DNA of 64,000 nucleotides from Symbiopectobacterium sp. (GCA_051710525.1 JBPESR010000007.1:8994-72993); one strand, 5' to 3'; counted from the stretch's first letter, positions 38,846 to 44,467 are shown. Numbers and translations: made by a program. Notes: generated from the letters alone by a model not told the origin.

Positions 38846-39450
38846 TTAGAGATTCACCCTGCGGCAGCCCTCTTCAATGATCTGCACGTCATACCTGAGT
38901 TCCAATGCATCTAGCACGGTAAATTTTACGCAGTAGTCCGTTACCAGCCCCATGATGGTAAAATTCATGATACCACGTTGGCGTAACAGGCTATCCAGTG
39001 TAGTGGCGACGCGTTTGCCGTTGTCAAAAAAAGCGCTGTAGCTGTCAATGTCATGCTGAGTGCCTTTCTGTATCACCGCATCAAACGCCTCACGATTAGA
39101 TTAAGGTAAGGGTGAAACTTCTCACCTTGCGTGCCTTGTACGCAGTGCACTGGCCACCATGTTTGCGCTAATCCTGCCAGTTCACCACGCTCTCCCACGA
39201 CAGCGTCCGGGTTATTGGCGGCGAAGCTCAGATGATTGGCCGGATGCCAGTCCTGGCTGGCGATGACGGGTATCCCGGCTTTCTGTGCTGCCACTATTGC
39301 TACGTTGACAACATCGATGGTGACATCGCCCTGTGCGACAGGCAGTGCACAGTTCAGACAAAAATCATTCTGCAAATCAACAAACAGCAGGGCATGGTTT
39401 ATGACAGTGTGGTTCATGGCAACTCGCTCCAGCATCCCCGAGTTATGCAT
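38846..39450 (-). pseudogene. pncA: Nicotinamidase
   Basis: LLFVDLQNDF, SQDWHP, WPVHCVQ, DSYSAFFDN; 5-bp duplication frameshift near 39085-39095; 3' end lost. Confidence 0.9.
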
Positions 39451-40462
39451 CCTGGGTCAATTCGCCGCGCAGGTCTTGTTGCATTAATTGGCGAATGATA
39501 TGAGGGGTTAAATCAGGTTGGCTCAGAAGATAATGCAGTTTAGTCAGCGTGGCTTCCACTGTCATATTAAAACCACTGATCACGCCAGCCTGCGCCAGCG
39601 CATTGCCGGTGGCGTAGCCCTCCATATTCACCCGTCCAGAAATGCACTGGGTGAGGTTAACCACGACAATACCCCGCTCCGATGCCTGACGCAGTTCGTC
39701 CAGTAGCGATGGGCTTTGCGGGGCGTTACCCACACCATAAGAACGCAATATCAACGCCTTGACCGGCTGTCGCAGGAAGTTACGCACTATATCCGCTGAA
39801 ATCCCTGGATAGACGGTGATCACACCGATCGGTTGTGGGGTAATCGGATGTACGATCAGCGATGCGCTAGGGGTTTCCGACTGCTCTGGCACCAGGCGGC
39901 GTATATGAATATCGGCCTCCAGTAGCGTCGGGAAGTTGGGGGAGGCGAACGCATCAAAACCGTCGGCATGGGCTTTTGTGGTTCGATTGCCGCGCAGCAG
40001 CTTGTTATTGAAAAACAGACTGACTTCATTCACCGGGTGATTAGCCGCGACATAGAGTGCATTAAGCAGGTTGGTTTGCCCATCAGAACGCAATTCGGTC
40101 AACGGAATTTGTGACCCTGTAACAATGAGCGGTTTTGCCAAATTCTCCATAATGAAGGAGAGGGCAGATGCCGTAAAGGCCATGGTATCGGTGCCGTGCA
40201 GAATCACGAAGCCGTCATACTCATCGTAATGTTGTTGAATATCCTCAGCGATGGCCTGCCAATCGGCTGGGGTCATGTCGGAGGAATCAATCAGCGGGTC
40301 ATATTCATGGATGGTAAAATCTGGCATCTCCGGGCGATGAAATTCCGGCATGTCAGCCAGCTGTTGTTGCAGGTGACCCAAAACCGGAATGTAACCGTTG
40401 GCGGAACGTTGCATACCTATTGTACCGCCGGTATACGCGACATAAATGGATTTCTTTTGCAT
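39443..40462 (-). CDS. ansA: L-asparaginase I
   Basis: YTGGTIGM, HGTDTMA; 339 aa. Confidence 0.97.
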   Translation of the reverse strand: MQKKSIYVAYTGGTIGMQRSANGYIPVLGHLQQQLADMPEFHRPEMPDFTIHEYDPLIDSSDMTPADWQAIAEDIQQHYDEYDGFVILHGTDTMAFTASALSFIMENLAKPLIVTGSQIPLTELRSDGQTNLLNALYVAANHPVNEVSLFFNNKLLRGNRTTKAHADGFDAFASPNFPTLLEADIHIRRLVPEQSETPSASLIVHPITPQPIGVITVYPGISADIVRNFLRQPVKALILRSYGVGNAPQSPSLLDELRQASERGIVVVNLTQCISGRVNMEGYATGNALAQAGVISGFNMTVEATLTKLHYLLSQPDLTPHIIRQLMQQDLRGELTQDA

Positions 40463-40550
40463 GCTGTTCTTATTAAAGAGATGAAAAACAGCCCGACATA
40501 AGCCAGGATGAGGGAAAATCAGGATGAGGGAAAATCCTGTGTGACAATAT

Positions 40551-42504
40551 TTATTTCACTTCACCGCAGGCCATGCAAAGGGCATAGCGATGCTGGGAAT
40601 CGTTAAACGTATTGAGCAAGGCAGGTTGTGCTTGTACCACCTCAGCCAACTGCGCTACCGGAGCAGGTAACATAGTCTGCCGGGCCGGTAATCAGGCATG
40701 GGCGGCAGCGTTGACGCGGTTTAGGATCATATCCAGCAGGCTTGGCTGCTCTTTAAACCAGTTGAGCTGGTATTGGCCCATCTTGGGCAGTTCAGCGGCT
40801 TTTTTGACTGCATCTTCAAAGTCACTAAACTGATCGACCAACCCGTTGGTTTTGGCGTCGTCACCGGTCCATACGTGCCCCTGGGCGATTTTATCAATCT
40901 CTTCCAGGCTTTTCTCACGTGATTGTGCGACCAGATCGACGAAGTTTTTATAACCATGCTCGATTCTGATTTGCATCATCTGAGAAAACTCGGGCGGCAG
41001 TGTTTGGTGATGCTGAGATCCGCCAACGGCGAGGTTGCCATACCATCTGTATGTACGCCGATAGCGCCAAGGGTATTTTCAAAGGTGGTGATCACGCCAA
41101 ATATACCAATCAAAAATATACCAATCAAATATACCAATCGAACCCGTCAGGGTGCTCGAACTGATGATGATGGCGTTCGCTGGCGTGGAGATCCAGTAGC
41201 CGCCGGACGCGGCCATACCTCCCATGGATACCACGATCGGTTTGCCAGGTAGACGTACTGCCATCAACTCAGAGCGAATCTTCTCCGAAGCGATTACGCT
41301 GCCTCCGGGACTATTAACGCGCAGCACAATCCCTTGATTTTAGGATCCAGTCTGGCCTGACGAATTTGATCCGCCGTGGTATCACCGTATCACCACCGAC
41401 CACCCCCGGGGTTTCCGGACCATCAACAATAGTGCCACTGGCAAAGATCACCGCAATTTCTGCACCGCTTTCAGTGGTCTGTTTTTCGGTGTAGTCGTAA
41501 ATCAGTGGTCTGTTTTTCGGTGTAGTCGTAAATGCTGGTGTAGTTGAAGCTCTGATTTTTGGTGTCCCAGCCGAAGGTTTTACCAACTTCTGCTCAATGA
41601 CCGAACGTGATGCCACTCGTCCACCAGTTTGTTTTCCAGCGCATAGCGTGGCCGGATCGCCTTGCACAGCCTGAAGGCCGGCAATAATCGCGCTGGCACC
41701 GGGGAACACTTGTTGCGGGTGTAATTTGTCAGTTTACTGCAACCGTATTCAGGTAGTTTTGCCACAATCTACCGACCCAGCGCATATCAGCTTCGCGCGC
41801 CTCGGGGGACATATCGTCACGCAGGAAAGGCTCTACCGCAGATTTGTAGGTACCAACGCGGAATACATGACTGATTACATCTAGCTGTTTCCAACAGCGA
41901 TTTGTTATAGAGGCCATTGGTGGCGAAACCGCGCAGATCAACGTTACCCTGCGGGGGGAGTGAAATGCTGGTCGCAAAACTGGCCAGATAGTATTGCGTT
42001 AGGCTATAACTGTCTCCGATCGCAAAAATTAGCTTGCCACTGTCGCGGAATTCACGCAATGCCTTGCAGATATACGCAATGCCTTGCAGATATATTGCAG
42101 AGAGGGTTGGTCGGCACCGACGAAATCGCTCAGATCGAGTACCATACCGGTAACATTGCTGTCGGTTTTGGCCTGACGAATTGTATTAAGTATTAACAAA
42201 GTATTAACAATATCAAACAGCGAATTTTCCTGACGGCGATTGCTAGAAGCACCAAAAAATTCTCTGCCCAACTGACGCAGTTTATTATTGACCATCGGCT
42301 TATCGACGACAACGCTGGTGAGATCAACGATCAGCGCGCCTTGAGGCGTTTGGGGTGGTGCATTTTTAAACTGCACACATAAATACCGACACCCCACAGA
42401 ATCAACACAATCAGAAACAGGTTAAGAATAAACTCGCGGGTGAAATTGAGCAGACGCCAAGTCCACTTGAAGAGTCCGCTAAAGATTCGCCACAGTGTGC
42501 GCAT
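40551..42504 (-). pseudogene. sppA: Signal peptide peptidase (protease IV)
   Basis: MRTLWRIF, LRVNSPGGS, SMGGMAASGGYWIS, FRVGTYKSAVEPF; many frameshifts and duplications. Confidence 0.92.
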
Positions 42505-42607: not shown

Positions 42608-42811
42608 AAATTACTATCTAAAAATCTCTAAAATTACTATTTTACTATCTATTCTATCTTCTATCTATTACTATCTATTATTTTATCTTCTATCTTCTAT
42701 CTTCTATCTTCTATCTTCTATCTTCTATCTATTATCTATATTATCTTATCTATTTATTATCTATTATCTATTTCTATCATCTATTCTATTCCTATTTCTA
42801 TCTATTCTAAT
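42608..42811. repeat. 204-bp G-free low-complexity tract with a (TATCTTC)6 core
   Basis: No G on the + strand from 42608 to 42811; six perfect heptamers at 42684-42725. Confidence 0.95.
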
Positions 42812-42944
42812 GAGAATATTGGAAAATGCCAACTTCATTAGTATCCTTTTTTGATAAAAATGTGTCTATTTTGCAAAGAAAAACGATTGGTTACGCGGCG
42901 ACCTTTTTCGTGCGGCGTGATGTGGCGATAACCGGAAGAGGAAT

Positions 42945-42985
42945 TGTAGTGGTCAACTAATTACTGACTGGCCACCGCATTAGAC
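42945..42985. mobile_element. Isolated IS911-like terminal inverted repeat (right-end type, reading inward)
   Basis: tgtagtggtcaactaattactgactggccaccg resembles the end at 43033; 4-bp actg stutter. Confidence 0.6.
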
Positions 42986-43032
42986 TGTAAGTAGTACAGT
43001 AGCTCAGATTCGTTTGGCATCAGACTGCTGTG

Positions 43033-43838
43033 TGTAGTGGCACACTGAATTTGGCCACCTGAACAGAGGTGATATGCTCACCTCAGGACAACACAGGTGC
43101 CCCAATGAAAAAAAGAAATTTCAGTGCAGATTTCAAACGTGAATCTGCTCAGTTTGGTTGTCGATCAGAGCTCTACACCATTGCTGAAGCAGCCAAAGCC
43201 ATGGATATCGGCCTCTCAACCATGACCCGCTGAGTCAGACAATTACGGGACAAACGGCAGGGAAAAACACCTAAAGCCTCTCCCATTCCTCCAGAACAGA
43301 TTGAAATACGTGCGCTGAAGAAAAACTATAACATATTGAAATAGAAAACAAAATATCTAAAAAGGCTACCGTGCTCTTGATGTCATACTCTATGAACGGC
43401 TCTCGTTAATCAGAAAACTCATGTGGCGCGTTATCCCGTGGCCACACTCTGCCACGTGTTCATGGTTCACCGCAACAGCTATAAATACTGGAAATGCCGT
43501 CCTGATGAACCGGACAAAAGGCGTACAGAGCTGCGCAGCTAGATTCAAGAACTGCACAACATCAGTCATGACTCAGCCGGTGCGAGAAGTATCGCCGCAA
43601 TGGCAACGCTCAGGGGCTTCAGGATGGAGCGCTGGCTTGCCGGCAGAATCATGAAAGAGCTGGGGCTTGTAAGCTGCCAGCAACCAAAACACAGAATATA
43701 CGCAACATAGAATATACGCGGTGGTCGGGAGCATGTTGCCATACCGAATTATCTTGAGCGCCAGTTCGCCGTCACAAAACCTAACCTGGTGTGGGGCGGC
43801 AATGTGACATATGTCTGGACAGGAAACTCTGGGCGTAT
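43033..43838 (+). mobile_element. IS3-family (IS911-like) element, degraded and truncated
   Basis: Left IR tgtagtggcacactgaatttggccacc; orf[17 protein letters not shown] at 43104; orfB to [24 protein letters not shown], then an abrupt junction. Confidence 0.9.

Positions 43839-44467
<629 letters not shown>

Follow-up and report, generated by a model that had tools for sequence, protein, structure and literature searches.

The DNA analysed here is a stretch of 64,000 nucleotides (hereafter the window; C7:8994-72993) in the 2,626,003-bp, 31-contig genome of the Symbiopectobacterium of the bat bug Cacodmus vicinus (sample C28; 50.5% GC, 2,065 pseudogenes), which is a metaSPAdes assembly (k = 21-127) of NovaSeq reads and carries ~113 transposase genes, its erosion having been put down to transposases (PMC12710357). 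The encoded TolB shares 95% identity with proteins of Symbiopectobacterium. At the locus of interest, an intact ansA gene and an sppA pseudogene lie to the left of an intergenic tract in which the + strand is devoid of G (Table 1). The sppA pseudogene has its ATG at 42504 on the minus strand; the tract starts 104 bp upstream of this codon and ends 132 bp before a repeated element of ~88 bp, beyond which lies an IS3-family pseudogene, the window from ~43005 to 43838 being 78% identical to the E. coli ISEc52 transposase genes. The E. coli gene upstream of sppA at the matching position is presumably ydjA. Many copies of the ~88-bp element occur here and in the relative G002, often beside IS3-family ends, and the element is either MITE-like or a portion of a composite IS end. 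Lineage-specific tandem duplications are scattered through the sppA region at 41098-41139, 41379-41394, 41471-41533 (31 bp, two copies), 42054-42094 (20 bp, two copies) and 42182-42210, with a further one just past the sppA 3' end at 40504-40536 (16 bp, two copies); TRF detected the repeats, and alignment showed the sppA-region insertions to be missing in the relatives G003, G001 and G007.

Table 1. Features at the G-free tract and in its surroundings (window coordinates)
Feature	Coordinates	Strand	Basis
ansA (asparaginase I), intact neighbour	39443..40462	-	NCBIfam PRK09461, 647.7 bits, full length
sppA pseudogene, several ORFs	40551..42504	-	fragments match NCBIfam PRK10949; 3' limit approximate
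G-free low-complexity tract	42608..42811	+	composition, run length, tandem contraction
Lineage-specific 184 bp, expansion proper	42614..42797	+	MAFFT alignments, abutting BLAST segments in 7 relatives
(TATCTTC)6 core	42684..42725	+	genome regex; TRF period 7
Intergenic flank, conserved, orthologous	42812..42944	.	query 896-1045 aligned in relatives, 82-91% identity
~88-bp dispersed repeat, abuts IS end	42943..43031	.	multiple matches, query 1042-1132, in G000 and G002
IS3-family (ISEc52-like) element, degraded, in-frame stops	43031..43840	+	similarity to ISEc52; left end repeated genome-wide

The run without G extends for 204 bp and consists of T (110, 54%), A (54, 26%) and C (40, 20%). No other G-free run in the window exceeds 47 bp, and when runs lacking one base were ranked genome-wide the tract was second, a 206-bp G-free run at C4:39699-39904 being longer. 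Stop codons number 11-19 per frame on the minus strand and 0-2 on the + strand. At the centre of the tract lies a perfect (TATCTTC)6 array, the sole array of this kind detected by a whole-genome regex search, which covers 42 of the 204 bp; the remainder is composed of nested, permuted modules, and TRF assigned a period of 7 with 72% matches to 42652-42803. An Rfam search at the site returned no family, a sub-threshold chance match alone being obtained. An earlier reading of the window, made from its letters alone (hereafter the sequence-only reading), had described the G-free run, its heptamer core, the stop-dense minus strand, the location upstream of sppA and a distance of about 130 bp to IS ends, and each of these was reproduced, the run and the core at exactly the same coordinates.

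Comparison with relatives points to the origin of the tract. In seven related Symbiopectobacterium genomes the left and right flanks abut as BLAST segments, and between GAGCG and GAG the relatives carry only a G-free seed of ~20 bp, AACTTACTCTCTATCCTAAT. At the insertion site they read ...GAGCGAACTTACT / CTCTATCCTAATGAG..., where the slash marks the position of the additional DNA. A four-way MAFFT alignment with G003, G001 and G007 defined the insertion as exactly 184 bp and specific to this lineage; a second alignment of the locus (A1) comprised ten sequences. A homologous long tract or repeat array within the same flanks, which would have indicated an ancestral microsatellite, was absent from the seven relatives, where the seed is unexpanded. 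Exact tandem contraction with units of at least 3 bp reduced the tract from 204 to 40 bp, while dinucleotide shuffles used as a control ended at 140±15 bp with a minimum of 93, and contraction of the tract together with its flanks yielded a sequence close to the ancestral site. Alignment and contraction together indicate that the tract is a lineage-specific, in-place growth of the ~20-bp intergenic seed by many local tandem duplications, in agreement with the proposal of the sequence-only reading that it is filler made de novo from a short seed. The reducible units within the tract are mostly 3-14 bp, under the genome-wide mode described below, and these small units and the perfect 7-bp array suggest a contribution from slippage. 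Part of the tract was therefore probably made by ordinary slippage once repeats existed.

Two further observations concern insertions at or near this site in relatives. At the same seed, G002 (L085, G002:C40, locus ~2170-2230; window ~42610-42800) carries a different small insertion, GTTTGTAGCGGCGTGGTTA flanked by two copies of TTCTATCCT, which resembles a target duplication around foreign DNA, and the seed site may thus be fragile in more than one lineage. Separately, the gapA-sppA syntenic block of G007 (L158) contains two lineage-specific 94-bp insertions, and these may represent a small mobile element in two copies.

The sequence-only reading had also placed the tract near a rearrangement breakpoint and offered, as an alternative, that a polymerase or reverse transcriptase had synthesised repeats on a short template and that the product was captured here. 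A causal tie to rearrangement is contradicted by the conserved right flank, since the 133 bp that adjoin the tract are still orthologous to the relatives and the tract is consequently not at the breakpoint itself. The same holds for the four other longest one-base-free tracts (C4:39699-39904, C9:107048-107188, C1:23206-23321 and C1:330607-330720), in each of which one strand is G-free. In G001, G003, G004 and G007 their flanks are adjacent or almost so, and all four are therefore in-place expansions at syntenic, unrearranged sites. Dozens of stuttering three-letter tracts are present genome-wide. Capture at a break of such a product, made by a reverse transcriptase or aberrant polymerase, would account for the three-letter, strand-asymmetric composition, but the flanks in relatives are contiguous, the tract contracts to the local seed, no Rfam RNA lies at the site, and a PF00078 search for reverse transcriptase returned nothing in the 2.63-Mb genome, 3 of 14 control genomes being positive. 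We regard capture as extremely improbable.

The growth of the seed has a counterpart throughout the genome. Two-copy perfect tandem duplications with units of 12-40 bp number 2,417, and their unit lengths form a smooth bell with a mode of 21 bp and a mean of 21.5±5.1 bp. In the 18-24 bp class the density is 5.1 per 10 kb, compared with 0-0.09 per 10 kb in samples of 20-200 kb from six relatives, giving a duplication load ~100-fold above these relatives. A surplus of long duplications that seemed to exist in one relative, G012, was discarded, its source being a masked stretch of N. Within a 7-kb syntenic block, this lineage has gained insertions of 184, 31, 28, 20, 18, 16, 8 and 7 bp, five of the eight being exact tandem duplications and the 28-, 18- and 184-bp insertions appearing nested or compound, while G003 and G001 have no insertions of that class in the block. 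That the tract arose by iterated in-place duplication and belongs to this genome-wide burst is therefore considered very probable, and the suggested place of the tract at the far end of a duplication process visible in the window holds, with ~2,400 duplications, for the entire genome. Across the whole window, ~100 TRF rows, mostly perfect two-copy repeats of 15-30 bp, are distributed throughout pseudogenes and spacers; the intact genes checked (pcnB, tolB, cydA, gapA and ansA) retain full-length family matches. No description of tandem duplications in Symbiopectobacterium turned up in a literature search, and the word 'tandem' is absent from the main text of the paper describing this genome (PMC12710357).

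Several properties of the duplications bear on the process that generates them. Microhomology at their ends equals the random expectation, 60% having 0 nt with a mean of 0.67 nt, indicating that the duplications were not formed between pre-existing direct repeats. In pairwise alignments with four relatives, segments of 12-40 bp that are extra here outnumber those that are missing by 78:7, 50:5, 27:5 and 19:4, an excess of duplications over deletions of ~10:1, which suggests that the process yields duplications and not reciprocal exchanges. Duplications are 16-fold depleted in ORFs of at least 400 aa and 70% of those inside such ORFs are in frame, a figure that is partly circular; genome completeness is 99.3% despite ~1 duplication per kb. 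Thus, the burst is duplication-specific, independent of microhomology and filtered by selection. With units of 16-30 bp, 2,090 pairs of copies are perfect, 497 have one mismatch and 159 have two. As most copies are perfect, the burst is young, and recent when set against the ~10% by which the nearest available relative diverges.

Since the assembly is a short-read metagenomic draft, an artefact of sequencing or assembly has to be weighed. The NovaSeq and metaSPAdes procedure with its k range of 21-127 lends itself to such a reading, and some artefacts do exist in the assembly, as a contig ends in 109 nt of poly-G (C20:30694-30802) that is almost certainly a product of the two-colour chemistry of NovaSeq. 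However, the distribution of unit sizes across 12-40 bp is smooth with no spike at a single k, long ORFs are avoided and completeness is high, the ends carry position-specific motifs, and about one quarter of the copies have already diverged. Furthermore, G002, which matches a Cimex hemipterus draft from the same sequencing and assembly pipeline, is among the burst-free relatives. With respect to the tract, which probably exceeds the length of a single read, the longest internal repeat is 40 bp, below the larger k values of the assembler, and none of its 45-mers is found again elsewhere in the genome; combined, these provide indirect support for its assembly. An artefact is accordingly thought to be highly unlikely.

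The sequences at the ends of the duplicated units were analysed for events with unambiguous boundaries. In the raw logo (n = 2,896 ends), position -4 outside the unit is C in 36% and G in 13%, the first four bases within the unit are T-rich and C-poor, and the mirror image appears at the opposite end; random pseudo-events gave a flat logo. Events occur on either strand, with the result that an aggregated logo is always symmetric, and a two-orientation mixture model was therefore fitted. Eight starts converged on one solution, which exceeded the symmetric model by 840 log-likelihood units compared with 200-270 for shuffled end pairs. The gain was +363 and +370 on held-out halves, and the motifs recurred in each of three size classes fitted separately. 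The consensus along one strand is 5'-T C W T T / T T ...unit... M A W C / G, with slashes at the boundaries. At the first boundary T occupies -5, C makes up 45-46% and G 1-2% of position -4, and T stands on either side of the cut. Position -4 of the second boundary, read along that strand, is A in 42%, C in 35-36% and G in 5%. As an independent check, events were sorted by a flank-base rule in place of the mixture model, and the second motif returned at positions unused in the sorting (with C at 7% in the fourth base within the unit), while the rule held at both ends in 38 events versus 58.6 expected. The two ends of a unit thus differ and are coupled, each lying 4 nt past a non-G base (C or A) on one strand. 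This end pattern resembles type IA topoisomerase cleavage.

Our first reading of the symmetric logo, namely the same site on opposite strands, was ruled out by the mixture analysis. The result bears equally on a mechanism in which the two strands are nicked at paired, staggered positions, as happens in target-site duplication or when transposition aborts, with fill-in and blunt joining to follow. Tandem geometry free of microhomology fits the fill-in of 5' overhangs, and the genome has ~113 transposase genes (PMC12710357). Against this, the end motifs are different and a symmetric model is worse by 363-840 log-likelihood units, so the half-sites are not equivalent; lengths are broad (SD ~5 bp) where target-site duplication by a transposon has a fixed length; no element remnants lie between the copies; and no Ku for blunt joining was found in the genome. 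Staggered nicking is on these grounds very unlikely. The strand of the events was also compared with that of ORFs, and no association was found; an R-loop model was consequently dropped, rnhA being intact. A link to the replicating strand was likewise set aside, as the odds ratio with GC skew (~0.7-0.8) is weak and confounded by the avoidance of G in the motif itself.

Ordinary replication slippage, in which a low-complexity intergenic seed stuttered and no special enzyme was involved, has observations in its favour as the sole maker of the tract, specifically the perfect (TATCTTC)6 core and the predominance of 3-14 bp among the reducible units. Slippage is, moreover, at work elsewhere in this genome, as long perfect arrays are present, (AGA)~28 at C5:48356-48441, (TCA)~25 at C3:116599-116678 and a 9-bp unit repeated 20 times at C7:114756-114934, from which it follows that classical array expansion runs beside the ~21-bp duplication process. 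Slippage alone is nevertheless unlikely, because the seed never expanded in relatives that carry it, the genome-wide duplications begin in non-repetitive DNA with microhomology at the random level, duplications exceed deletions of the same size ~10:1, and the ends bear coupled, asymmetric motifs. The repair status of the genome does not assist slippage either, mutS and mutL being intact here and one or the other broken in two relatives in which there is no burst, and a mismatch-repair defect was rejected as the cause for the same reason. The idea of repeated realignment on a seed put forward in the sequence-only reading therefore stands with regard to the seed; the slippage that it implies is at odds with the lack of microhomology and the enzyme-like end motifs genome-wide.

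The resemblance of the ends to type IA sites suggests that the duplications may be initiated by topoisomerase I. The base favoured at -4 by type IA topoisomerase I is C, read by a pocket that includes R169, R173 and Y177, and the R169A substitution changes this preference to A (PMC7587558). In the model that we favour, topoisomerase I would nick single-stranded DNA at the first site and remain linked to the 5' end, the freed 3'-OH would be extended by ~21 nt through strand displacement, and the enzyme would rejoin the bound 5' end to the new 3' end with no need of template or alignment. The resulting loop would become a tandem duplication at the following replication. The four terminal bases of the extended 3' strand would sit again in the groove of the enzyme, which under the model places the second boundary 4 nt past a non-G base. 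Nicking, extension and rejoining would account for the missing microhomology, the 10:1 excess of duplications, the pair of sites on the same strand and the dispensability of Ku. The mode of 21 nt may be set by the length of the patch synthesised by Pol I. Assignment of the motifs to topoisomerase I is inferred from their resemblance to the published specificity, and the T-rich character of the motif (or its AT richness) could partly reflect DNA that melts easily as opposed to contacts with the enzyme.

The model would also offer a reason for the composition of the tract. On its G-free strand, 50% of positions score above the genome 95th percentile for the first-site motif and 12% above the 99th, while the other strand is at background. 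This asymmetry of motif score was repeated in three of the four other tracts, C9:107048 being high on both strands, and the ancestral seed already contained several good first-site positions. A G-free, T-rich strand would be dense in preferred sites and every duplication would add more, leading to a runaway G-free tract to which later slippage would add perfect arrays, (TATCTTC)6 among them. There is some circularity in this argument, in that any T-rich, G-free sequence scores well.

Candidate genes were examined for changes that might explain why the burst is confined to this lineage. topA (C6, ~132-134 kb) is intact, and its product is the one type IA enzyme that this genome has kept intact; the residues of catalysis and of the -4 pocket are all present (E9, K13, R168, R169, D172, R173, Y177, R195, Q197, Y319 and R321 are retained). 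Changes in TopA unique to the lineage include A12V, R133C, P181Q and S499F. Of 143 diverse representatives, 131 have proline at position 181 and none has glutamine; this position is four residues past Y177 and sits one helical turn from the pocket for the -4 base; A12V adjoins E9 and K13, and neither A12V nor S499F is seen among the representatives. In a conservation scan of 147 diverse representatives, P181Q was the one unique change at strongly conserved TopA positions, while the burst-free relatives G009 and G012 have 2-3 such changes, with the consequence that the scan is not discriminating and the evidence from the allele is weak. It is therefore doubtful that a TopA change of this lineage (P181Q, A12V, S499F) is the cause. 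Loss of the second type IA enzyme, topoisomerase III, or of ExoIX was rejected as a cause, as both topB (C2:219361-220677) and xni (C23:14181-14658), which are pseudogenes here, are dead also in some relatives that have no burst.

A defect in flap processing of the rad27/FEN1 type, in which a weak PolA 5' nuclease, loss of xni or both would allow flaps of ~20 nt to be ligated in as duplications, was also weighed. In its favour, the Pol I patch is near ~20 nt in length. In addition to the xni pseudogene, PolA (polA at C8, ~56.5 kb) carries a lineage-unique Tyr-to-Cys change in the conserved GAMYGV motif of its 5' nuclease domain. On the other hand, polA is otherwise intact, and xni is dead in G012 and absent from G009, neither of which has the burst. 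Flap-ligation duplications reportedly need short direct repeats at the ends, where microhomology is at chance level here, and a non-G base at -4 of both ends on one strand is not predicted. A flap defect is thus distinctly unlikely. Returning to topoisomerase I, we give it, by analogy with its published specificity, an even chance of being the initiating enzyme; as a whole, the explanation that joins in-place expansion, the burst and nicking, extension and rejoining by topoisomerase I is the best at hand and appears marginally more probable than not.

Slippage covers the growth of tandem repeats but not their birth, and how such repeats are born from non-repetitive DNA is an open question. The ~2,400 events in this genome are young and lightly selected, and they suffice for reading a mutational mechanism off the sequence. 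One mutational process may underlie a large share of gene inactivation in the lineage, and this same process adds DNA to a genome that is shrinking overall. The tract is one symptom of a lineage-specific mutational burst for which we found no published report, with a plausible enzymatic cause. The burst turns a laboratory curiosity, the topA R168C mutator, into a hypothesis testable in nature with concrete alleles and sites. A wider proposal, that topoisomerase I is a natural maker of de novo tandem repeats and that the TopA allele of this lineage made a side reaction the dominant mutational process, is tentative and on balance improbable. If the allele reading were true, the side reaction would have broken genes, added at least ~50 kb of new DNA and produced runaway G-free tracts at site-rich strands.

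Several known systems resemble the burst in part. Short duplications of tens of bp form a distinct mutational class in rad27/FEN1 yeast and in E. coli polA 5'-nuclease mutants, as they do here. The flap-ligation duplications of rad27 are said to require short direct repeats of 3-12 bp at their ends, and the short tandem duplications of the polA mutants are reportedly bounded by short direct repeats also. In contrast, the duplications described here combine microhomology at the chance level with end motifs. Another parallel is Portiera of Bemisia whiteflies, a host-restricted symbiont that has gained many lineage-specific tandem repeats in non-coding and dead DNA (PMC7821994). The present case differs in being a young, 2.6-Mb, pseudogene-rich symbiont of the Enterobacterales with mutS, mutL, polA and rnhA intact, and in having events with a defined size mode and end motifs. 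With respect to the cleavage specificity of type IA enzymes, the likeness lies in the enrichment of C and near exclusion of G at -4 of the first boundary, and the difference in a -4 preference that tolerates A and T and falls short of the strict one reported for wild-type E. coli topoisomerase I.

A further system like the present one is the E. coli topA R168C mutator, in which repeat-independent de novo tandem duplications of 2-19 bp arise by a mechanism that its authors left open (PMC6954433; Bachar et al., Nucleic Acids Res 2019/2020). In both, duplications are formed head to tail from non-repetitive DNA with no pre-existing repeats required, events fall in hot spots, duplications outnumber deletions (in the mutator, for that allele) and a type IA enzyme is implicated. 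The units differ in size, those here having a mode of 21 bp and a main class of 12-40 bp, and R168, the residue mutated in the E. coli strain, is unchanged in this lineage. Finally, R168C is a laboratory allele with few events per line and no cleavage motif, whereas the Symbiopectobacterium of C. vicinus is a natural genome with ~2,400 events and a resolved two-end motif.
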